Positions 4,390 to 32,000 of a stretch of 32,000 nucleotides of DNA are shown here, one piece after another. A program made the position numbers and the translations under genes. The stretch covers positions 960,001 to 992,000 of the forward strand of contig NZ_OZ239769.1 in the NCBI RefSeq assembly GCF_965196625.1, in the 5' to 3' direction. Below the pieces are notes generated by a model, which saw only the letters and a program-made list of their open reading frames with translations, did no database searches and was not told the origin of the DNA. Within the stretch, counting starts at the first letter, position 1, and each line of letters opens with the position of its first letter. The DNA comes from Candidatus Saccharimonadota bacterium. Its GTDB lineage: Bacteria; Bacteroidota; Bacteroidia; Cytophagales; Amoebophilaceae.

Positions 4390-4718
4390 CTAAAATAGAG
4401 GTGCTACCTGACGGCCTTTTAATACTTTGAAAAATGAGCTAAGCACAGAAAGTACTTCTTCATAGTGCTCCTTTTCGCAAGAAATAAGTGGGCTATCATA
4501 TTCATCGATTAAGATAATAGGGGTAGGTTCATAATGATCCAGTTTACTGAACAAATTAATTACTCTACTTAAGTAATCTTCGCATGCTTCTTCTACTGAA
4601 ATATTTATCTTATCCTCTACCTTATAAAGCTCGGCAATATCATATAATTTTCTATTGAGACTCTTTTCTAATGTCCCTGGATTGCCTTTGGATACTTCCG
4701 AAAAGTTTAACCAGGAGA
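4390..4718 (-). pseudogene. fragment of an AAA-ATPase-like (PF09820-type) gene, same family as 27804-29573
   Basis: My minus-strand translation reads ...NFSEVSKGNPGTLEKSLNRKLYDIAELYKVEDKINISVEEACEDYLSRVINLFSKLDHYEPTPIILIDEYDSPLISCEKEHYEEVLSVLSSFFKVLKGRQVAPLF*. It carries the IDEYDxPL Walker-B-like signature seen in the intact paralogue (YMLIDEYDTPL). It stops about 300 aa early, and its 5' side abuts a group II intron 3' end. Confidence 0.6.
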
Positions 4719-5306
4719 GTAGACCGGTGGAACTTCCCCACCAGCCCCTCGCAGAACTGCACCGAAATCTCTCGATTTATGCAGCTCCCATTATTTAGCC
4801 TTTGATCTCTCTCATAATCTCAACCCAAGCGTCCAATGATAGAATATAGATGGAGAACCAGCTCTCACTTTTCCTAGAAATTGCTTTGCTAGATTTTCGT
4901 GACCTCGTAGTTTCTTATACTTGGCCTGGACCCACCTTACGAGATATCTCTCTATATTAACGAGAGGTCTGTACATCGCCGATTTATAAAACCTGCCGTA
5001 GTACTGATACCAGCCTCTGACTTTGGGATTTATTTTCTTTGATATTGACTCCAACGTGGTCCACGTGATGTGATGTATTCTCCATGATTTTATGACTCTC
5101 TGAACCTTGATGCTAGCTTTCCTACTAATTGCGGGTAAAAAAGAGACAAAATATTGTCCCAACTTATTCTTTGCTTGTCTAGGTCTAAAAGTGTAGCCTA
5201 AGAAGTCAAAGCTTTCGTTTGGAAATGCCTCTTTCCTGGAATCGTCCTTGCAATACACTATTTGTGTCTTTTCAGGATGAAGACGTAATTTGTACTTGGC
5301 CAGCCT
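4719..5306 (-). mobile_element. group II intron 3' remnant (RT/maturase C-terminus + domains V and VI), 5' part deleted
   Basis: The open frame 4812-5306 translates as ...AKYKLRLHPEKTQIVYCKDDSRKEAFPNESFDFLGYTF...RGWYQYYGRF... This matches RT domain 7 plus the maturase X domain. It is followed by a 34-nt domain V at 4754-4787 and a domain VI-like hairpin ending ...GGTCTAC near 4719. RT domains 0-6 and intron domains I-III are absent. Confidence 0.8.
4754..4787 (-). ncRNA. group II intron domain V
   Basis: The minus strand reads GAGCTGCATAAATCGAGAGATTTCGGTGCAGTTC. It has the canonical 34-nt D5 shape: a GAGC...GTTC closing stem, the AGC catalytic triad position, a 2-nt bulge region and a GAGA tetraloop. 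Confidence 0.75.
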
Positions 5307-5548: not shown

Positions 5549-6583
5549 ATGAAAAAGTATTTAGTTTTGGTGCCTCTTATTGCATCCTGTAGTGGGGTAA
5601 GAGAGCCTAATAGTATGATGAAGAATCAAGAAGAAGGTAGTCAGGGGGAAGGATTGAGTAATGTAAATCTAAAAAATATTAATAATCAAAAATTGACAAT
5701 AAGTGGTCTGGTTGCACACAAATTAGCCAGTAAATGGCTTGGTAAGAAGCAGAATGAACTAAATCTAGATGATATTATAAAACACTTTAAAGAAATTAAA
5801 GAGAATCTTAAATACGTTAAATTGCCACAGACAGACTTTTTTAAGAAAAAATTTATTAATGCTTTGCTTAGTTATCATAAAAAAGATATTAGTACGTATC
5901 ATTTGATTCCTGAATCAGAGAGAAATAATGGTGATTTACAACTCATTCAAGCGTTATTAGAAATATTGTTGAATAATCCAGATATTGACGTTAATAATGA
6001 AAATTACTTTGGTAATTCCGCTCTCACATTAGCAATGGATATAGCTGATCCAGACGAGGATGATAGTAGAGACGTAATTTATATAAATTCATTCAAAATA
6101 TTGTTGAATCATCCAAATATTGACGTTAACATAAAAGATGGTAATGGTAATACCCCACTTGTTTTAGCAATAAGGCATATAAGTAGTGGGAAAGAATTAC
6201 ATGTAGAAAATGGGGTAAATGCAATCAAAATGTTACTAAATCATAAAAACATTGATGTTAATAAAGCAGGTAAGAGCGGACTGGTTCCTATCTTATTAGA
6301 ACTAACGAAAAAAAACACAAATATAGATGTATTAAAAATGTTGCTGGAGCACCCAAGCAATAATTTTAAGATCAACTCCGTAAATGATTCTAATCATACC
6401 TTGCTTAAAATAGCAATAGACTATTGTAATTTGGAGGCAGTCAAATTATTCTTGAGTTATCCAGATATTCTGGTTCGCAAAGAGGATTTGGATTTTGCAA
6501 AATCACGATATGATTATTGCAAGAGTGAAAAAACTAAGGCTATATACAACATGTTACTGAGCCATAAAGGTAATAAGGGATAA
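5549..6583 (+). CDS. ankyrin-repeat lipoprotein (eukaryote-like repeat protein)
   Basis: The N-terminus MKKYLVLVPLIASCSG is a signal peptide with a lipobox Cys. There are about 5 ANK-like repeats with a recurring LLNxPNIDVN...GNTPLxLAI pattern. The repeats are also visible at nucleotide level, for example 5971-6010 versus 6101-6140. Confidence 0.85.
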   Translation: MKKYLVLVPLIASCSGVREPNSMMKNQEEGSQGEGLSNVNLKNINNQKLTISGLVAHKLASKWLGKKQNELNLDDIIKHFKEIKENLKYVKLPQTDFFKKKFINALLSYHKKDISTYHLIPESERNNGDLQLIQALLEILLNNPDIDVNNENYFGNSALTLAMDIADPDEDDSRDVIYINSFKILLNHPNIDVNIKDGNGNTPLVLAIRHISSGKELHVENGVNAIKMLLNHKNIDVNKAGKSGLVPILLELTKKNTNIDVLKMLLEHPSNNFKINSVNDSNHTLLKIAIDYCNLEAVKLFLSYPDILVRKEDLDFAKSRYDYCKSEKTKAIYNMLLSHKGNKG

Positions 6584-6868: not shown

Positions 6869-8140
6869 CTACCCCTCTTCCTGGCCATATCTACTGGTTA
6901 AACTCAATGAACCAGATTTTTTATCAACTAGATTATACGTGGCATAAGCAGCTAACACCGATTTTCCAGAAAAGGCATTACCAACTTCTATTACCTCCTG
7001 GACATGAGGATATTGTAATATTTCAGTATGATAGGCTTGATTTTATATTTGCGATAAGGCCAGTTTAACTGAATTTTCCAGTTCTTCTTCTTTCCAAACC
7101 TGTTTAAATTCTAATAGCAGCGCCTTGGGACCTTCTTTTTTAGGTATTAATAAGAGATCGTAACGACCCAAACCACCTTCTCGATTGGAGCGTATATAAT
7201 GGGTGATACCCAAACTGGCTAACATCCCTAACACAAGACCATCGTAAAAGCCTTCTGATGTGCTACTTTTTTTTGTATAAAAATAGCTAACACTACGACG
7301 TAAAAAGTAACTAAGCTGTTCTACAAAAGCAGAAACCTCACCAACTACTAAATGTTTCAAAAAAGAATCATATTGTCGCTTTCGCTCAAACTGATTGACG
7401 AACCATTCTTGAAAAAATGTACTATAGAGTCTCCATATTTCATAGTTGGGTACTCTGACTCTACAATCATATACATTCGTATAGGCACTTAAATTACTTT
7501 TCTAAAAGGTCAAATAGCCAGCAAATAATAAAAGGCTCCAAAAAGATGTGTCATCTTTATCTAGGATATCAAAAGAAAGATGTTTATTAATGGATATATC
7601 TAAGGATTCCCCTCGCATTAACTGTTCAAATTGCTCTTTGATATCCGTATGAGCAGTAAGTATCTTTTGTTCAATTAAGTTATTATTACCCGTATTCACC
7701 CAATAGACATCAAAACGACCCGACTTATTGATACAAGAAATAATAGACCATGGATTATACATCACCAAGTTGTCTACTTTATAGCCATTATACCAGTTTC
7801 TTACTTCTTCCATGGAAGTACTAAGGCTTTGTCCTTTAAATAGAGATGAAACTTCATCTTCACTAAAGCCAAAGCGACTACTATACTCTTCGTCCAGCAA
7901 GGTATAAGTTTCTAGGTTATTCAACCCAGATAGCATACTATCCTTAGAAACACGCAATATGCCGGTTAATAGGCCTCTTTCCAGCGCAGTATTACCTTTT
8001 AGCGCATTACTAAATAGATTACGCATAAACTTGACCATACGATTCAAGTATGTCTTATTACCATAAGCTTTATTGAGTGGCGTATCATATTCATCTATTA
8101 GCATATAGACCTTTTGACCATGATGTTGGTAGAGGATTTG
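6869..8140 (-). pseudogene. AAA-ATPase-like / PD-(D/E)XK (PF09820+PF08011-type) gene, N-terminally truncated with two in-frame stops
   Basis: The track pieces 7502-8104 and 7043-7360, plus the untracked tail 6869-7042, are all in one frame. They are collinear with residues ~168-589 of the intact paralogue at 27804-29573. TAG at 7502-7504 replaces the Gln of ...YLTFQTSN. TAA at 7043-7045 replaces the Gln of ...QIQTQAY. The first ~165 codons are missing, and the break abuts the stop of the 8141-10216 gene. Confidence 0.85.
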
Positions 8141-10490: not shown

Positions 10491-10562
10491 TGTCCGGTAG
10501 TGTAATGGCAACACGTCTGGTTTTGGTCCAGAAGACTCTAGGTTCGACCCCTAGCCGGACAA
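10491..10562 (+). tRNA. tRNA-Gln (anticodon UUG)
   Basis: Manual cloverleaf: acceptor TGTCCGG/CCGGACA with U1:A72, D arm GTGT-AATGGCA-ACAC, and anticodon arm TCTGG-TTTTGGT-CCAGA giving anticodon TTG. The T arm is CTAGG-TTCGACC-CCTAG and the discriminator is A. No CCA is encoded. Confidence 0.9.
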
Positions 10563-10603
10563 CTTTGAATCCAAGTAGCATACTGCATAAACAAAAATTT
10601 AAG

Positions 10604-11956
10604 ATGGTAGGTTTCAAGCATAGTCGTGGCTTAATAACATTAGGGCTTTCTTTTTGCACATTACTCATCACACATGATATGGTGTTGGCAACAGGGGCAA
10701 AAGGGAAAAAGGATAAAAAGGTGGCAGTTGTATCTCCTACTATAAAAGAAAAATCGCCTGAGTTGGGTAATGCCAATAGCGCTGCGAACAAGCAGCTGCA
10801 AAGTGAGCTAGAATCAGAAAATGCATTGAATCGCGCACGCTTAGAAAAACAGCTTTCAGCTATTATTGCTCAAATTGAACGGCTACGTGTTGAGAAAGAG
10901 CTCCAGCGCTTGGGCAAAGAGGTAGCAGATGAAAATGCGCGGCGATCGCATGAAAAAGCCATGCTTTTACTCAATATGGAAAAAGAAAAACTTACCATGG
11001 AGTTAGAGCTAGCAAAGGCTAGGTTTATGCAACAAATGGAGTCGTATGATAGCGAACTAATTAAACTAAGTAAAAAAATAGAATTAGAAAAAGGACAAAC
11101 GCAGCTGCTCCAAGAGACTACCCACCGGGTACAAGCAGAAATAGAAGCCTTAAAAGCCAAAGCAGTACGAAATAACCATATTGCCAAAAGGCCTATTTAC
11201 CTGAAAGACCCATTGGTCAAACGAACGAATACCTTAGTGCTTTCTGATCGATGTATTGAATTAAACGGCTATATTATTCCCTGGAAAGCAAATTATATCG
11301 TAGACCAAATTAATTATTTTAACAATAAAAATAGTGATCATCCTATATTTATTATTATTGGTAGCTCTCCAGGTGGTTGTATAAGTGCAGGATGGAATAT
11401 TTTACAAGCGATAGAACATAGTAAAGCACCTGTCTATGTAATCGTAAAAGAATGCGCTGCTTCCATGGCAGCGCTGATCACTACATTGGCTACTAAATCT
11501 TATGCTTATCCAAATGCCATGATCTTACATCATCAGCCTTGGTCCTGTGTTTGGGGTAATCTAAGAGAAACAAAAGAGCATTATGAGTCCCTTAAGGAAA
11601 TATGGAAGCGTTTAGGGGGTAGAGTAGCCAAAAAAATGGGCATATCTCTTAAAGAATTTGATAAAAAACTTTATCAAAAATCGATGTGTGGGGACTGGAA
11701 GGAATATGGGGACAGTGCTAAAAAGCTTAAATGGGTTGATTATGTGATCAGTGGTATTCAAAATAGTGCGGTTAGCATGCTACCAGATGCAGCCGACTAT
11801 ACTTTTGAAAAATTTATAAAGCAATATTATGGTTTTGATGCAACAAAAGGAAAAGACCAACTTGCAGAAGAGCAATATTACCAATCTATAGCGCCCCATG
11901 ATTTTGACTATAGCTACAGGCCTGATAGAAAGGCGCAGATGATGCGCAAAAAATAG
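10604..11956 (+). CDS. signal-anchored coiled-coil protein with C-terminal ClpP-fold (S14-like) serine protease domain
   Basis: The track ORF starts at 10505 inside tRNA-Gln, so I moved the start to the ATG at 10604 (MVGFKHSRGLITLGLSFCTLLITHDMVLA, a signal/anchor). A heptad-rich region of about 180 aa follows (ELESENALNRARLEKQLSAIIAQIERLRVEKELQRL...). The ClpP-like core is IIIGSSPGGCISAG...ECAASMAALI...MILHHQPW...GDWKEYGDSAKKLKWVDYVI, with Ser, His and Asp all present. Confidence 0.75.
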   Translation: MVGFKHSRGLITLGLSFCTLLITHDMVLATGAKGKKDKKVAVVSPTIKEKSPELGNANSAANKQLQSELESENALNRARLEKQLSAIIAQIERLRVEKELQRLGKEVADENARRSHEKAMLLLNMEKEKLTMELELAKARFMQQMESYDSELIKLSKKIELEKGQTQLLQETTHRVQAEIEALKAKAVRNNHIAKRPIYLKDPLVKRTNTLVLSDRCIELNGYIIPWKANYIVDQINYFNNKNSDHPIFIIIGSSPGGCISAGWNILQAIEHSKAPVYVIVKECAASMAALITTLATKSYAYPNAMILHHQPWSCVWGNLRETKEHYESLKEIWKRLGGRVAKKMGISLKEFDKKLYQKSMCGDWKEYGDSAKKLKWVDYVISGIQNSAVSMLPDAADYTFEKFIKQYYGFDATKGKDQLAEEQYYQSIAPHDFDYSYRPDRKAQMMRKK

Positions 11957-14554: not shown

Positions 14555-15715
14555 ATGGATATGCGACAATCTCCTTCCGGTCAAATTATACAATCACTCA
14601 AAGGCTATCATGCTTTCGTACCCTATGCGCTACCACCCAAATTTGAATGGAATACTAGGCTAGTCAACAGTTTGTCTCGTGCTGATTTTTTGCTTGGAAA
14701 ATTAGCACGAGAAGGCAGTAGATTACCGAATCCTCATCTTTTAATACGTCCATTCATCACCCGCGAAGCAGTATTATCTAGCAAAATTGAAGGTACCGAA
14801 GCCACTTTGGGAGAAATCTTAGCTGCTGATGCAGGTGCCCATGTAAACCAAAACGCCGACGCCCTCCAAGAGGTACAGAATTACATTAGGGCACTTGATT
14901 ATGGGCTCAAGCGCTTAGCAGCGCTTCCATTATCGTTACGCCTTATTAAAGAAATACATGCGCACTTAATGGAAGGGGTTAGAGGAACACATGCCACACC
15001 GGGCGCATTTAGGACGAGCGAGAATTGGATTGGCCTACCGGGCTGCACACTGCATACAGCAAAGTTTGTACCTCCACCACCTGAGCATTTAATGGATTCT
15101 CTAGGCAAATTTGAAGATTTTTTACATGACAGATCATTACCCCCATTGATTCATATGGCACTTTGCCATTATCAATTTGAAGCCATTCATCCATTTTTAG
15201 ATGGGAATGGGCGTATCGGAAGACTCTTGATTACACTGCTGTTGATTGAGCAAAATATCCTTCCTTTACCTTTATTATATTTATCTGCATTTTTTGAAGC
15301 AACACGCAATGAATATTATAAACAGCTTTATAATGTTACCTTGAAAGGGAGCTGGCACGAATGGTTCACTTATTTTTTAAATGGCATAGCCGTTCAATCT
15401 GAGGATGTTTTATCGCGTACTGAACGGATAAATGCATTATTAACGCAATGGAAAATGGACCTTGCAAGAGGGAGCTCCCAAGTACTCATAGACATGGTAC
15501 AGCTTTTGGCTGTAAATCCTTATTTTACCATCAACAAAGTGGCTAAAGATCTTAAGATTTCATACAGCACTGCACAAAGAGGGGTGCAAAAACTTGAGGA
15601 TGCCGCCATTATTAAAAAAACGCGTAACAACAAACGGGATAAAGTGTACTGTGCTATTGACCTATTAAATATCCTGGAGGAACCTACAAGAATCAACGCC
15701 GATATTTATGCATGA
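14555..15715 (+). CDS. Fic family protein (AMPylase-type), class II with N-terminal inhibitory motif and C-terminal wHTH-like region
   Basis: The canonical Fic motif HPFLDGNGRIGR is at 15188-15223. The inhibitory (S/T)xxxE(G/N) motif SSKIEG is at 14777-14794. The total length of 386 aa is typical of the Fic_N + Fic + wHTH architecture. Confidence 0.92.
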   Translation: MDMRQSPSGQIIQSLKGYHAFVPYALPPKFEWNTRLVNSLSRADFLLGKLAREGSRLPNPHLLIRPFITREAVLSSKIEGTEATLGEILAADAGAHVNQNADALQEVQNYIRALDYGLKRLAALPLSLRLIKEIHAHLMEGVRGTHATPGAFRTSENWIGLPGCTLHTAKFVPPPPEHLMDSLGKFEDFLHDRSLPPLIHMALCHYQFEAIHPFLDGNGRIGRLLITLLLIEQNILPLPLLYLSAFFEATRNEYYKQLYNVTLKGSWHEWFTYFLNGIAVQSEDVLSRTERINALLTQWKMDLARGSSQVLIDMVQLLAVNPYFTINKVAKDLKISYSTAQRGVQKLEDAAIIKKTRNNKRDKVYCAIDLLNILEEPTRINADIYA

Positions 15716-17362: not shown

Positions 17363-17414
17363 GCCATCATCAAAATCATTTTACCAATTCTATATCAAGG
17401 GTATAGATTTGAAT

Positions 17415-17821
17415 AGATCGTATTTCTTCAGCCAATGGTAGGGTCGAGCAATGGCGCGGTAGTATTACCCCCGTTTCCATTGCCCGCCTCATTAAGCGCA
17501 GCATACAGATCTCCCGTACTACGTTTTCCTGATCCCTTCTTATCATCGCCTATGGCCTATCTAATAGTTTTGCTTTCAGCGTTGACGCTTACACCACCTT
17601 GAACTATAGAAACCCATGCTTTAGACATATTTTGTCAGCTTTAGCTTTGATGTATATGCTCCTTCTCAGGTCTTGTTATGTTAGGTGATTTTATCATACC
17701 ACATTTACATCCCTTATTATTCGAGCAATGTTATCAGCAGGGCGCCTTCGCTCCACAGCTATTAACTTTTAGTCTAGTAGGACTTTCACCTACTGGTACA
17801 TACTAGCCTCTCTAGACACAC
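17415..17821 (-). mobile_element. probable group II intron 5' fragment (domain I-III region), ORF and 3' domains missing
   Basis: The minus strand starts GTGTGTCTAGAGAGGCTAGTATGTACCAGTAGGTGAAAGTCCTACTAGAC, which fits the GUGYG 5' consensus followed by nested hairpins. About 400 nt have visibly higher GC than the flanks, and no ORF of 60 aa or more occurs on either strand. The lower boundary is approximate. Confidence 0.45.
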
Positions 17822-18000
17822 GCATCAACTTAAGGAATATGTATAATAATTTTTGATTGATTATAAGGTATTTTTATCTTACTTTTTGCTTTTTTTGGGG
17901 CAATTTTGCGATATAGTTGAATGAATACAATATTTATGTATAAAGTTGGGGTAGTGTTGCCAAAAGGCCAAATAGATATAAATTAAGGTGCGAGGGGTAT

Positions 18001-18092
18001 GCTGGCCGCCGATAAAAAGTTTGGCACACAGTAAAGGTAAGGAAACGAACTACAAGTCTACTGAAGCGCCAAGTTTTTTATCGGCGGCCAGC
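18001..18092. repeat. GC-rich palindromic element, complete copy (25-nt arms, 42-nt loop)
   Basis: The left arm gctggccgccgataaaaagtttggc is at 18001-18025 and the right arm gccaagttttttatcggcggccagc is at 18068-18092. They are complementary at 23 of 25 positions. Half copies occur at 29605-29655 and 31920-31960. Confidence 0.8.
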
Positions 18093-18358
18093 AGCGATTT
18101 AACTTAACGCAATAGGAACAACCGCCCATAAAATAATATTTTATATTTATAATCAATAAGATATACTAATTAAGTTGACACCATTGGCTGAATGAAATTG
18201 CTAGACCCTACTATAGGTTGCAAAAAACTAAAAAATTTATTATAATAAAATTATCGTATAGTTAATAACTATTCAAATTATACCGATGGTTATTGCAGAA
18301 TAGCCATTCTAAAATGTAATAATCTTAGTTCTAAACATTAATTAAAACAGGATCTACT

Positions 18359-18484
18359 ATGAATATTGAAAATATAATCGCCGCTATCGCACCATCTGAT
18401 ATTGCTAAAGCGGAACAACAAGTACTTATTATGGAAAATGAGCATCAAGATGCTAAATTTAATATGCTTGCTTTTTCAGAATAA
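18359..18484 (+). CDS. 41-aa small ORF, candidate precursor peptide
   Basis: The ORF runs from ATG at 18359 to TAA at 18482-18484 and encodes MNIENIIAAIAPSDIAKAEQQVLIMENEHQDAKFNMLAFSE. It lies 180 nt upstream of, and co-directional with, the HExxH and ABC genes, and a hairpin follows it. The ORF track omits it because it is under 60 aa. Coding status is unproven. Confidence 0.35.
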   Translation: MNIENIIAAIAPSDIAKAEQQVLIMENEHQDAKFNMLAFSE

Positions 18485-18535
18485 ACAGTATTGTTTGTAC
18501 TAGTATAGGTGAATAAGAATTCTATCTACAATCAG

Positions 18536-18558
18536 TAGCATTGAGTCATTCAATGCTA
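18536..18558 (+). terminator. 9-bp stem-loop after the small ORF (possible attenuator or leaky terminator)
   Basis: The sequence is tagcattga, loop gtcat, then tcaatgcta, followed by ttggtttatt. Confidence 0.35.
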
Positions 18559-18665
18559 TTGGTTTATTATGTATTATGCAAATTAAAAAAAGTAGCATGT
18601 TTTATTTTTGAATTGCATATAGTTTTTATTTTATTTTTAAAAAAAATAATATTATATACTTTCAT

Positions 18666-19544
18666 ATGTTCAATCTATTCGGGATAGAAGAAACTATTAA
18701 AAATGTTTATATCCTATCCAAAAAATTTATGAATTGCAGTAATATATCTAATACAAATGAATTAAAGCCATTTTATCTTAAGTTTTTAAAAGATCATCAA
18801 CCAGCCCAACCTATCCCAGATACATTATCTGTATCTTTTATTGCAGATACTACTGGAATATGGCAGAAATTAAATCCAGAAAGTGATGACAATGCATTAG
18901 ATGATATGCATCAACAGTCTATGGTTGGAGAAGCTTATCCAACTCATGAACAAGAACAACATCTAGAAGCACTTAAACTAGGGTATCTCTAGCTTACGGA
19001 ATCAAATGCTGAATTAAAAGAACTCTTTGATCTAATCATCCATACTGTATTTTTGAGAAAAAGCAGAAAAATAGATAAGTATACTTCGTTTGGCGGATCA
19101 TCTTCTGCTGGCATAGGTCTGATTTGGATAAGTGGTCACGGAGCACTAGATCGAGAAGATATTGCTGAATTACTATTACATGAGTTAACCCATCATCAAC
19201 TATTTATTGACGAGCGTTGTCATATGCACTATAACTATGCAGCGTTGTGCAAACCAGAAAACTTCTCTAGCTCTGCTATTTTAAACAAAAAACGGCCTTT
19301 AGATAAGGTTGTCCATAGCATTATTGTGGCCACAGAGATTATCTTAGCAAGGAATAGATTTTTGCCTCAGCAAGAGACAAAAGTTCATGGAACTTCGAAG
19401 AATTTAATGGATAAAACATTGACTGCTATTAAAGAAACTATGCGTATGGCTAATATTAATGAGCTACTAAGCGAAAGAACATGGAAGATACTGGAAACAG
19501 CAGAGGCATCTCTAAGAAAAATAAAGGATAAATTACTATCCTAA
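18666..19544 (+). pseudogene. HExxH-motif putative peptide-modification enzyme (HEXXH-domain / aKG-HExxH hydroxylase-like), one in-frame TAG
   Basis: The track ORFs 18666-18992 and 19053-19544 are in the same frame (offset 387 nt). They are separated only by a TAG at 18990-18992, and the intervening codons LTESNAELKELFDLIIHTVF are open. HELTH is at 19179-19193, and KRPLDKVVHSII lies downstream. Confidence 0.6.
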
Positions 19545-19594
19545 ATCATCTAATATTCTAGTAGAAAGCGTAGCATTTTAAGAAAAATAAACAT

Positions 19595-20980
19595 ATGCAT
19601 TACTTATTTAACAATAAGTTTTTTATTTACAGTGTTTCCTTAGTTTTCTTACAACAAGTGGTTATTGGATGTTCCACTTACTATATTGGGTTAGCAGGTC
19701 AGGCTATTGCGTATAACCCAATGATTGTCCTTAGATACATCACGCTATTTTTTTTATTAATAGCCTTGGCCTATCTCCTAGGAGCATGTTCTCTATTCTT
19801 TCAGACTAAGTTGTCTAATTTTTGTTGGGAGCATTATTACAAGAAAATTTTTCAGGAATTAAGTAAGGATATTAGCTTAGCAACCGACCATAATAAAATA
19901 AAAACTCAGAACTGGATAGCTGGGGAGTCTTTCCAAACTTTTCAAGAAGCTAGCCACATTTTTGTAGATGGCGTTTCTGTTTTTTTGAATATACTTTTTA
20001 CGATTATCGCCTTTAAATGTGTATTAGGCATAAAGGCATCTCTAGCAGTTTGCTCGGCTTTGGTTCTTGCTGCACTATCGATGAGGCTAGCAAAGCCCTT
20101 GATCTATAAACTATCCAATCAAATACAGTCGCAGAAACTAGATGCTTTACATGCTGTTCATCTCATTTGGGATAATCTATTTTTTGGTAATAAACATTAT
20201 GAACAGGCAGCACAGCGCATAGCTAAACAGCCTATAGAACAACTATTTGTATTGATACAACGGCATAAGATAATAGAGCAACTATTTAGCTGCCTACCTA
20301 TTTTAATCGCTATCTCGATCATCATTATAGTAGCACGACATCAGGTACTTAGCCACCTGGGTTCTTTAGGAGCACTTGTAGCGATACTTCCACGATCTTT
20401 GCAGTTATTGCAAAATATTCATACACTCTGTACTAGCTTAAACAATATGGTATTCTTGCATACCAAAATCGGTAACCTTGATAGATTTGTGGAACAATTG
20501 CCTAAGCAACCATTGACTGGTCCATTAGATTGTGCAGCTATCATGTTTAATTGTCTTAAAGGTCCTACTAACCAAGCTTGGAACGCAAAGTTATTTCTAG
20601 ATCATGTTAATCGTGGTGATCTGCCTCAAGGAAGATTTCTAATAACGGGCAGCAATGGGAGTGGTAAATCATCTCTATTAAGACGTATTAAAAAAAAATA
20701 TCCTGAAGCGATTCTATGGGGGCCTAACATTATCCTTGGTATAAAAAAGATAGAAGGATCAATTGGAGAGCAGCACTGGCAGATTTTGCTAAATATTTTG
20801 CAAAACAGTGAAAGTAGCTTACTATTACTGGATGAGTGGGACAGTGCTTTAGATCACTTGCATACCAAAGCTATCGATGAACGACTTGATGCGCTTGCGC
20901 ATGATCATACCATACTTGAAGTGCGTCATAAACATATGAATTATGTTTCTATTGAAAGCTGTGACAAAAAAAGTTATTAA
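19595..20980 (+). CDS. ABC exporter, fused permease + compact ATP-binding domain
   Basis: The 461-aa ORF has about 290 aa with 5-6 hydrophobic helices. It then has Walker A (GSNGSGKSS), a signature-like SIGEQ, Walker B/D-loop (LLLLDEWDSALD) and an H-loop candidate (EVRHKH). Only about 30 aa separate Walker A from the signature. Confidence 0.75.
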   Translation: MHYLFNNKFFIYSVSLVFLQQVVIGCSTYYIGLAGQAIAYNPMIVLRYITLFFLLIALAYLLGACSLFFQTKLSNFCWEHYYKKIFQELSKDISLATDHNKIKTQNWIAGESFQTFQEASHIFVDGVSVFLNILFTIIAFKCVLGIKASLAVCSALVLAALSMRLAKPLIYKLSNQIQSQKLDALHAVHLIWDNLFFGNKHYEQAAQRIAKQPIEQLFVLIQRHKIIEQLFSCLPILIAISIIIIVARHQVLSHLGSLGALVAILPRSLQLLQNIHTLCTSLNNMVFLHTKIGNLDRFVEQLPKQPLTGPLDCAAIMFNCLKGPTNQAWNAKLFLDHVNRGDLPQGRFLITGSNGSGKSSLLRRIKKKYPEAILWGPNIILGIKKIEGSIGEQHWQILLNILQNSESSLLLLDEWDSALDHLHTKAIDERLDALAHDHTILEVRHKHMNYVSIESCDKKSY

Positions 20981-21025
20981 CCTTCTTTATTAAGCCTTAC
21001 CCACTCTGTCTCTTTAGGTTATAGC

Positions 21026-22045
21026 CTAGAGCGTGTCGCGATAAGAGGCATCCTCTTCGATCCGACTGCGCACAAGGTGTTCAATACCGGCCTGCAATGG
21101 AATAGATGGCTGCCATCCTAGTGTTTCTTTAACCCTTGTACAATCAAGTGCATAGCGTCTATCCTGGCCTATTCTTTCAGCAATGAAATGGATAAAAGAA
21201 GTGTACGATTTCCCACTTAGTAGTTTCAAACGATCCAGGATTTCACAAATCATCGATGCAATTTCAAGGTTGGTCCGCTCTTGATTGGCACCAATATTAT
21301 AAGATGCCCCACTTTCACCTTTGTGAAAAATGCAATCGATAGCCCTACAATGGTCCTCCACATGCAACCAATCCCGAATACTACTTCCATCTCCATGCAA
21401 TGGAATAGGCTTCTGTTGTAATGCATTTTCCAGAACCATAGGCATAAGTTTTTCTGGATATTGATGCCGTCCATAATTATTGGTCGAACGGGTAATAACG
21501 GTATCTAACCCATAGGTATGGGTATAACACCTCACTAGACATTCCCCTGCAGCCTTGCTGGCACTATAAGGATTCGTTGGCGCAAGCGGATCGGATTCTG
21601 TAAATGGTTTATTATGATCATCTAAGGCACCATAGACTTCATCGGTAGAAACATATACAAAGCGATGATTGAGCTTTCGTGGCTGACTTGGTCCTTTAAA
21701 CCAATGGCTATAAGCTGCATGTAACAGTAGGCCAGTCCCCTCTATATTGGTCTTTATAAAAAGATGGGGATCAATAATTGACCTATCTACATGCGACTCA
21801 GCAGCGAAATGAATAACCGCATCAAAGTTAAATTTTTGGAATAATGACAAGACCAATGCAAAGTTGGTTATATCTCCTTCTACAAAATAGTAGTTTGGCC
21901 GCTCCTGAAGTGCAAAAGATATACGCGCCGCATAGGTAAGTTTATCTAGGTTAACAATGTAATAATCAGGATATTTTTTTAAAAACAATTTAATACAGTG
22001 GGCACCTATAAAGCCAGCTCCACCCGTTACCAATAAATTGCGCAT
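21026..22045 (-). CDS. rfbB: dTDP-glucose 4,6-dehydratase
   Basis: The N-terminus is LVTGGAGFIGAH (Rossmann fold). The catalytic region is STDEVYG...YSASKAA (YxxxK). The length of 339 aa and the overall pattern fit the RmlB family. Confidence 0.92.
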   Translation of the reverse strand: MRNLLVTGGAGFIGAHCIKLFLKKYPDYYIVNLDKLTYAARISFALQERPNYYFVEGDITNFALVLSLFQKFNFDAVIHFAAESHVDRSIIDPHLFIKTNIEGTGLLLHAAYSHWFKGPSQPRKLNHRFVYVSTDEVYGALDDHNKPFTESDPLAPTNPYSASKAAGECLVRCYTHTYGLDTVITRSTNNYGRHQYPEKLMPMVLENALQQKPIPLHGDGSSIRDWLHVEDHCRAIDCIFHKGESGASYNIGANQERTNLEIASMICEILDRLKLLSGKSYTSFIHFIAERIGQDRRYALDCTRVKETLGWQPSIPLQAGIEHLVRSRIEEDASYRDTL

Positions 22046-29604: not shown

Positions 29605-29655
29605 TGCTGGCCTGCCAATAAAAAGTTTGTCGCGCAGTAAAAGCAAGGAAACGAA
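29605..29655. repeat. left-half copy of the GC-rich palindromic element
   Basis: The sequence gctggcctgccaataaaaagtttgtcgcgcagtaaaagcaaggaaacgaac aligns with 18001-18051 with about 8 mismatches. No right arm follows. Confidence 0.65.
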
Positions 29656-29943
29656 CACGAGTGGGTGAGTTCTGTTTTATCTTCTAGAAAGCGCCTATCT
29701 GATCTCACTGATCATAGTGACCAGCAATGTCAATAGCTTGTGCTGCACATAAAAGTGCAATGGCTAGTAAGTTAATAGTGTCTAACGTTTTAGTTATAAA
29801 GCCAATTTAATACAAATAACCTAAATTTTTTAGGGTTATGATTAACATAGCAAATAGTGGAGAGATTCTGCTGAGTAGAAAGAGGAACATAATATTTCAA
29901 TACTTCTTGCATCAGCTCTTGAAAAGTTAAAAACATCTCTCTT

Positions 29944-31919: not shown

Positions 31920-31960
31920 TACAAGCTTACTGAAGCGCCAAGTTTTTTTATCGGCGGCCA
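31920..31960. repeat. right-half copy of the GC-rich palindromic element
   Basis: The sequence tacaagcttactgaagcgccaagtttttttatcggcggcca aligns with 18051-18090. A possible degenerate left end (gctgg) is at 31895-31899. Confidence 0.65.
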
Positions 31961-32000
31961 TTACACATTAAATTCACGCCATTGAAGCGAATGCAATTAA

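Follow-up and report, generated by a model that had tools for sequence, protein, structure and literature searches.

The stretch analysed here, hereafter the window, comprises 32,000 nucleotides of the forward strand of contig NZ_OZ239769.1 (positions 960,001 to 992,000; assembly GCF_965196625.1). At 18359-20980 it contains three genes on the forward strand that together resemble a minimal cassette for a peptide that is made on the ribosome and modified after translation (RiPP). They are a precursor peptide gene of 41 codons (18359-18484), a gene for a peptide oxygenase of the alpha-ketoglutarate (alpha-KG)-dependent, HExxH-type (aKG-HExxH) family (18666-19544), and a gene for a compact ATP-binding cassette (ABC) exporter of 461 aa (19595-20980). 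The copy in the window is probably a horizontally acquired, now degenerating cassette of this type, the intact relatives of which would work by the mechanism proposed below. The ABC protein is 100% identical to P0053, a protein of “Cardinium endosymbiont of Nabis limbatus”, by which the reduced, host-associated Bacteroidota genome suspected in an earlier note on this DNA is identified as that of the insect symbiont Cardinium. The same note had correctly placed the open reading frames (ORFs) of 41 codons and 461 aa and quoted the peptide sequence without error. Moreover, its reading of the locus as precursor, tailoring enzyme and exporter proves right at the level of gene families, as is borne out by the conserved small ORF, the enzyme family and the synteny described below.

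The second gene had been described as a 293-codon frame containing HELTH. In the translation of the frame starting at 18666, the motifs do occur at the spacing claimed, HELTH at residues 172-176 (19179-19193) and RPLDKVVHS from residue 210 (19293-19319), but the frame is broken: translation of 18666-19547 meets a premature in-frame TAG at codon 109 (18990-18992). Because this TAG splits the frame, the enzyme is called as two ORFs, one of 108 aa (18666-18992) and one of 163 aa (19053-19544, with a TTG start). Eleven of the 22 ORFs listed in the window, the 108-aa ORF included, terminate in TAG, which is therefore an ordinary stop here; its reassignment or read-through as a coding feature was ruled out on the same ground. 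The intact orthologue P0001, a 292-aa protein from a second Cardinium (locus L001) that is 84% identical to the window enzyme, has CAT (His) opposite the TAG, in a column of the family alignment that varies between H, Q, E and K. An AlphaFold2 (AF2) model of P0001, made from an alignment of 26 homologues, stands in for the window enzyme. It forms a compact single domain with a predicted local distance difference test (pLDDT) score of 87.8 and a predicted template modelling (pTM) score of 0.89, and the TAG codon lies within its helix 93-113. When a helix of a compact single-domain fold is interrupted, the chance that the two parts still work together as an enzyme is small but not nil. It would appear, then, that the enzyme gene of this genome is a pseudogene, in which the TAG truncates the oxygenase and abolishes its function.

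The state of the cassette in other Cardinium genomes points in the same direction. Three Cardinium lineages have the 2.7-kb cassette, each at a different chromosomal site. By blastn and pairwise alignment, the window and L001 have only 18286-20990 in common, at 84-86% nucleotide identity on the forward strand, and their flanks are unrelated; this block marks the extent of the mobile cassette, the neighbours of which differ again in the third lineage, Cardinium sp. TP. Each copy is damaged in a different manner. In L001 the enzyme is intact, and indels of +1, +16, -1 and +1 break the ABC gene into three called ORFs. In Cardinium sp. TP a frameshift near codon 175 disrupts the enzyme gene, and the contig (L008) ends just inside the ABC gene; in other assemblies of the TP lineage an IS insertion is seen, the ABC ORF following rve/DDE transposase genes with its first ~15 codons replaced by unrelated sequence. 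Such differing lesions are as expected for a locus under relaxed selection. Pairwise Nei-Gojobori estimates of the ratio of non-synonymous to synonymous change (dN/dS) are 0.13-0.26 for the peptide among the Cardinium copies, from few sites, 0.29 for the enzyme (dS 0.28) and 0.19 for the ABC gene (dS 0.50, window against Cardinium sp. TP). Values of 0.13-0.29 indicate purifying selection in the past, during most of the divergence, and lesions that are recent. The cassette would have been inherited from an ancestor shared with at least two other Cardinium lineages. Although the precursor and exporter genes are still intact, production of the modified peptide has most likely ceased, since the nonsense codon truncates the oxygenase. 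The secreted modified peptide envisaged in the earlier note consequently finds no support in this genome, given the TAG in a core helix and the independent disabling lesions in two other Cardinium lineages.

It is unlikely, by comparison, that the cassette is still functional, with the TAG being a sequencing or assembly error, or the enzyme working as two fragments or from a restart, so that a modified or unmodified peptide would be exported into the insect host cell. A single lesion that is a substitution rather than an indel would favour this reading, but TAG and the orthologous CAT differ at two positions, which is atypical of read errors. The 163-aa C-terminal piece is annotated as a protein by NCBI (P0002); a restart at the TTG at 19053 would, however, drop the N-terminal 129 residues. 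Likewise, the precursor and ABC genes are intact, all invariant residues are kept and dN/dS is well under 1, as a working cassette would predict, whereas the stop falls within a helix of a compact single-domain fold, confidently modelled as described above, and the two other Cardinium lineages have disabling lesions of their own in the cassette.

Regarding the enzyme itself, its assignment rests on both family models and fold. The C-terminal piece of the window enzyme scores 57.3 bits against TIGR04267 (mod_HExxH), for which the curated NCBIfam cutoff is 40, and P0001 scores 58.1 bits. Furthermore, the 163-aa fragment is 99% identical to P0002 of the same organism, to which NCBI gives the name “aKG-HExxH-type peptide beta-hydroxylase”. 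Homologues with 30-51% identity occur in Photorhabdus, Xenorhabdus, Pectobacterium, Serratia, Klebsiella, Alcanivorax and many metagenomes. Throughout the 26-homologue alignment H172, E173, H176, P211, H217, E224, R229 and H241 are invariant, and R210 (≥90%), D213 and K214 nearly so; H172, E173, H176, R210, P211 and H217 are all retained in the window sequence. The HExxH, R-P and H residues may serve as ligands of Fe or alpha-KG. When the P0001 model was compared with the PDB by Foldseek, the best match was 8s5f, the HExxH alpha-KG oxygenase ChlB (E 1.9e-8, TM-score 0.55-0.57), and SjiH was found at E 5.5e-7. The structure-based identity to 8s5f is just ~15%. A sequence-profile search of the PDB placed ChlH at an insignificant E of 0.64, below spurious matches to GGA1, and the fold search was needed. 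No Pfam model fits the enzyme, the only matches being sub-threshold ones to Aminopep and DUF6055. As the earlier note had guessed from the motif layout, the window gene truly belongs to the known aKG-HExxH family, albeit as a broken copy. Members of this family bind Fe(II) via HExxH, require alpha-ketoglutarate, and beta-hydroxylate His, Asp, Phe, Gln or Pro in RiPP precursors; two of them, PflC and PosC, also oxidatively cut off a C-terminal ARMD tetrapeptide so that an amide is left (PMC12636437, PMC13060819). PflC has, in addition, a latent hydrolytic activity towards truncated substrates (PMC12636437).

The possibility that the HExxH protein is instead a zinc metalloprotease or leader peptidase, within a plain module for export of an unmodified bacteriocin or pheromone, is considered very improbable. 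HExxH is the classic zincin motif, and models of SprT and of aminopeptidases match the enzyme weakly, but no zincin model reaches significance, whereas the curated aKG-HExxH cutoff is exceeded. The highest-ranking metallopeptidase in the fold search, 4l7a, appears only at E 1.3e-2, and the folds of the ChlB HExxH domain and of SjiH are thus five to six orders of magnitude better; the oxygenase assignment survives the comparison with generic zincins, 1.9e-8 against ~1e-2. Also at odds with a protease are the RP…H elements downstream of HExxH, which are conserved and family-specific. A protease would fill a place for which the cassette encodes no separate enzyme, and the hydrolysis of truncated substrates that is latent in PflC (PMC12636437) offers a precedent for such activity.

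The first gene encodes MNIENIIAAIAPSDIAKAEQQVLIMENEHQDAKFNMLAFSE, a peptide that opens with MNIENIIAAI… and closes with …FNMLAFSE. The HExxH gene has a small ORF directly upstream of it in virtually every locus examined, and precursor orthologues in this position were found in Cardinium, Photorhabdus, Pectobacterium, Xenorhabdus, Bdellovibrionota, Actinomycetota and others. Across the loci the small ORFs have in common an N-terminal motif, M-x-I-x-x-I-I/V-x-x-V, taken as the leader, and a C-terminal motif, Φ-x-M-Φ-[A/S/T]-Φ-polar, taken as the core. The latter most commonly reads …(N/I)M(I/L)AFD, ending at the C-terminus or one residue short of it, and its Met is invariant in all 19 distinct peptides compared. 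Cardinium peptides end in AFSE or AFAE, and that of locus L033, described below, in AFEE. Neither NCBIfam nor Pfam holds a model for these precursors. From its conservation, the 41-aa ORF is judged to be a true gene, and the expectation that relatives keeping the two larger genes would keep the small ORF is confirmed across phyla by the shared C-terminal motif. That it might be a chance ORF beside an unrelated pair of genes, short ORFs being common in AT-rich DNA and several overlapping ones being present in the region, is excluded for practical purposes by homologous peptides, which occupy this position in more than 20 loci from different phyla and have leader and core motifs in common, and by the excess of synonymous over non-synonymous change among the Cardinium copies.

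The gap between the precursor and enzyme genes contains, on the forward strand at 18530-18574, a hairpin of ~15 bp with a U-rich tail, which was detected in a scan for terminator-like elements. Its predicted RNA fold has an energy of -27.4 kcal/mol (z = -2.9 against shuffled sequences), and L001 retains the sequence, as does L008 in part. Precursors are commonly expressed above the level of their enzymes by means of a partial terminator behind the precursor gene; here the hairpin is a candidate attenuator or transcript-stabilising element. In the same gap L001 carries a 139-nt insertion (7691-7829), located just 3' of the precursor stop, relative to window position 18489; the insert of Cardinium sp. 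TP at this site is a different one and longer.

A scan at one genome per species gave 25 further loci, to which tblastn and ORF extraction were then applied. In Photorhabdus africana and Pectobacterium polaris a 43-aa ORF (…MESEEVSVLGPMNMLAFDA) is followed by the enzyme, a gene for a 360-aa protein and a 445-aa homologue of the ABC protein. The HExxH gene, the 360-aa gene and the ABC gene follow one another in four species of Xenorhabdus and several Bdellovibrionota, while the HExxH gene is followed by the ABC gene, without the 360-aa gene, in two uncultured proteobacteria, in one member each of Fimbriimonadia, Hyphomicrobiales and Bacteriovoracaceae, and in Cardinium. In Nocardia, Streptomyces, Thermoanaerobaculia, Saprospiraceae, Steroidobacteraceae and Acidimicrobiia, the HExxH and 360-aa genes stand together without this ABC gene. 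The order HExxH, ABC, with or without the 360-aa gene between them, recurs in Gammaproteobacteria, Bdellovibrionota, Armatimonadota, Alphaproteobacteria and an unidentified endosymbiont. Since the order of peptide, enzyme and exporter recurs in unrelated phyla, the arrangement is more than chance, and the synteny on which the earlier note had made its reading depend holds across about 25 loci. In Streptomyces and Nocardia (L031 6001-8264 and L032 6001-8217), a precursor with the ending …MFALDQA or …MFALDKV is followed by three HExxH paralogues in tandem, which is a different elaboration of the same family.

The 360-aa gene directly follows the HExxH gene in related loci (L004-L028) and is absent from Cardinium. 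No Pfam or NCBIfam model matches its product; a profile of 14 sequences gave a weak match to cysteine dioxygenase around an invariant H-D-H (E 0.008), from which the protein is probably a cupin metalloenzyme. Its presence goes together with the end of the precursor: the peptide ends in [A/S]-F-D(x) in 16 of 16 loci with the gene and in one of nine without it (Fisher p 8e-6, uncorrected for phylogeny). The closest intact relative of the Cardinium cassette that was found, the trio of L033 on a Logan contig (40, 297 and 453 aa; 68% nucleotide identity), also lacks the cupin gene. The glyQ and glyS genes of L033 cluster with those of “unidentified bacterial endosymbiont”, and the cassettes of Enterobacterales sit amid resolvase, Tn3 and toxin-antitoxin genes. 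This endosymbiont relative and this mobile-gene setting are consistent with horizontal spread. A test for carriage on plasmids returned only three distant matches, on Acinetobacter plasmids and a Ralstonia megaplasmid.

The third gene is apparently intact, and its product was claimed to be a fused permease-ATPase exporter. The AF2 model of the protein (pLDDT 87.4) shows six long transmembrane (TM) helices within residues 8-296 and a nucleotide-binding domain (NBD) that is a small alpha/beta domain of ~130 aa (residues 317-445). Foldseek matched the model to MsbA, ABCB8, TmrAB, TAP, McjD, PCAT1 and HlyB at E 5e-9 to 2e-7. The window protein has Walker A GSNGSGKSS (20648-20674), Walker B LLLLDE (from 20825), SxGE, SALD and H445. 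It belongs to a coherent set of homologues of 440-460 aa, whose alignment shows an invariant Walker A, GxNGxGK, together with S-x-G-E/Q, LLDEWD as Walker B, a D-loop of the SALD type, EVRH as the H-loop and LPRSLQL in TM6; the invariant columns of this family alignment (A2) are retained in the window protein by definition. The stretch between Walker A and the signature-like SxGE/Q, to which the signature is reduced, is just ~40 residues long, and no Q-loop was identified. Sequence models match the protein only as fragments, at the P-loop and Walker B. In a search with the ABC_tran model, which had been suggested as a check, the score falls short of the threshold; Walker A, the Walker B Glu, SALD and the His are all invariant. 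Neither the Pfam scan nor the AF2 model shows a C39 or other N-terminal peptidase domain. Based on the modelled fold, the Foldseek matches and the conserved NBD motifs, the protein is assigned to the half-transporters of the type IV ABC fold, its NBD being unusually reduced and putatively active as an ATPase, and the exporter fold anticipated in the earlier note is thereby confirmed. To our knowledge, its ATPase domain is among the smallest of ABC proteins.

On this basis, a mechanism can be proposed for intact cassettes. The leader of the ~40-aa precursor would dock on the stand-alone Fe(II)/alpha-KG HExxH oxygenase, and the C-terminal 6-8 residues (Φ-x-M-Φ-small-Φ-polar) would form the core, one residue of which would be modified by Fe(IV)=O chemistry. 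Three options are envisaged. The terminal Asp may be beta-hydroxylated, or else Phe or Asn, residue types that are precedented or nearly so. The conserved small residue may instead undergo alpha-hydroxylation, whereupon the residues behind it would be lost and an amide left, comparable to the cleavage by PflC and PosC at the Ala of ARMD. Alternatively, the invariant Met may be oxidized. A homodimer of the compact ABC half-transporter would then export the product. In many lineages the 360-aa cupin-like enzyme might add a second step, associated with a terminal Phe-Asp. Removal of the leader, if it takes place, could be carried out by a protease encoded elsewhere or by a latent hydrolytic activity of the PflC type. 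The suggestion that no other class-defining RiPP enzyme or protease is found nearby agrees with the neighbours checked. More tentatively, and with considerable doubt, the trio might represent a new, widespread RiPP class, in which the HExxH enzyme is the sole class-defining enzyme, acting on the Met-Φ-small-Φ motif, possibly by cleavage and amidation as in PflC, and the cupin, similar to cysteine dioxygenase, is specific for the terminal Phe-Asp. Under this proposal the cassette would be exchanged among intracellular symbionts and would have been used by ancestral Cardinium in interactions with its host or with other microbes before being lost.

Several observations weigh against the interpretation as a decaying RiPP-type cassette. 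A lone nonsense codon may stem from a fault in the assembly, or a split enzyme or a restart may make it tolerable. None of the three Cardinium lineages has a damaged precursor gene, which may be due to chance, as the gene is a small target, or to a residual role. Moreover, the Cardinium peptides, with AFSE or AFAE rather than AFD, are without the Asp of most family members, a difference that could reflect altered or lost chemistry, or just the subtype without the 360-aa gene. No gene for a leader peptidase was found in the cassette or among the neighbours checked, and a housekeeping protease may take that part. Finally, the NBD is much smaller than canonical ones, and the protein scores 19.2 bits against Pfam ABC_tran, under the threshold of 25.

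The surroundings of the cassette are described here for completeness. Upstream lies a palindrome at 18000-18093, with 26-nt arms (18000-18025 and 18068-18093) that are 92% complementary, and downstream rfbB occupies 21026-22045 on the reverse strand (TIGR01181, 390.7 bits against a cutoff of 365.1); both flanking features had been named correctly. The palindrome is a dispersed repeat: its arm motif GGCCGCCGATAAAAA appears again near the end of the window (31945-31962, reverse strand), and blastn relatives occur at 29614-29656 of the window and in Cardinium sp. TP (L034, 10136-10182). It is probably a REP- or MITE-like element. The description of the locus as an AT-rich island holds only in a mild form. 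GC is 0.30-0.34 across 18001-20000 against 0.30-0.43 in the rest of the window, and the ABC gene (GC 0.36; GC at third codon positions, GC3, 0.31) is indistinguishable from its neighbours. Low GC3 (0.19) is limited to the peptide gene and the 5' part of the enzyme gene, the remainder being genome-like. An origin argued from foreign composition was consequently rejected as weak, GC and GC3 mostly matching the surroundings.

Between a Lys/Glu-rich 217-aa ORF and the cassette, ~1 kb (17376-18358) is without any ORF longer than 60 aa; its final 73 bases (18286-18358) are already inside the shared cassette block. An Rfam search of 17376-18358 gave no match at the gathering threshold to any RNA family. 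A scan for sigma-70 promoters, which does not cover those of Bacteroidota, was uninformative, with 11 sites where 17 were expected. Elsewhere in the window, 4714-4789 (reverse strand) matches the Rfam group II intron catalytic domain (45.6 bits, gathering score 40) and adjoins a 148-aa ORF at 4812-5258 on the same strand. A Fic-type adenylyltransferase-like protein is encoded at 14555-15715 on the forward strand (E 5e-55, under the equivalog cutoff) and an ankyrin/AnkG-like protein at 5549-6583, also forward; both are candidates of the kind typical for host interaction in intracellular symbionts. A gene for tRNA-Gln (10491-10563) and a 483-aa ORF with an ATG start (10505-11956) share a strand and overlap at the 5' end of the ORF, so that the true start of the latter is probably further downstream.

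For this genome the meaning of the cassette is modest, because the locus is probably non-functional. It is mildly surprising that an obligate intracellular lineage of Bacteroidota once gained and kept a cassette for a secreted peptide, and its loss by a different lesion in each Cardinium lineage is a clear case of ongoing gene decay. Beyond Cardinium, the subfamily is present in culturable Photorhabdus, Xenorhabdus, Pectobacterium, Serratia, Klebsiella, Streptomyces and Nocardia; the chemistry is thus directly testable in these hosts, at a time when the reaction scope of the enzyme family, including beta-hydroxylation and backbone cleavage, is still being mapped. Our literature searches found no description of this subfamily of precursor, HExxH enzyme and compact ABC protein, and nothing relevant on the core motifs (MIAFD, MLAFD, NMIAFD, NMLAFD and MVAFD), on RiPPs of Cardinium or on SjiH.

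Comparison with known systems places the cassette more precisely. The beta-hydroxylases of the ChlB/ChlH type (TIGR04267/IPR026337, PDB 8s5f; Morishita et al., Nat Chem 2024, as cited in PMC12636437 and PMC13060819) are resembled in the family model score above cutoff, in HExxH with RP…H, in the best structural match and in the adjoining precursor gene. However, ChlB is fused to radical S-adenosylmethionine (SAM) domains, whereas the enzyme of the cassette is stand-alone, is the sole modifying enzyme and, in this genome, has an interrupted gene. Comparable in organization are PflC and PosC of Pseudomonas, which are likewise stand-alone alpha-KG-HExxH enzymes acting near the precursor C-terminus, accompanied by transporters and by no protease; their target motif ARMD also has a small residue and a terminal Asp in a leader-bearing precursor (PMC12636437). 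Their clusters encode, in addition, an MNIO-nitroreductase fusion and a GNAT protein, which the cassette lacks (PMC12636437). As compared by description rather than by sequence, their precursors are long and NHLP-like with runs of Gln, in contrast to the ~40 aa and the Φ-x-M-Φ-A-F-D/S of the cassette precursor. PesO of the nitrilobacillin cluster (PMC13060819) and BpmH of the biphenomycin cluster (PMC12257519, PMC12707348) are also alpha-KG-HExxH tailoring hydroxylases in RiPP clusters, but they are accessory to MNIO or AS-like enzymes and accompanied by M16/TldD peptidases, none of which is found in the cassette. As for the exporter, it is similar to McjD, PCAT1, TAP, TmrAB and MsbA in its six long TM helices and C-terminal NBD with Walker A and B, SALD D-loop and H-loop. 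It is, however, 100-120 residues shorter, largely missing the helical subdomain and Q-loop, and has no C39 peptidase domain and a family-specific LPRSLQL in TM6. The enzyme family is known, and already so named by NCBI, while the uncharacterised part is a minimal RiPP subfamily with precursors and a compact exporter of its own.

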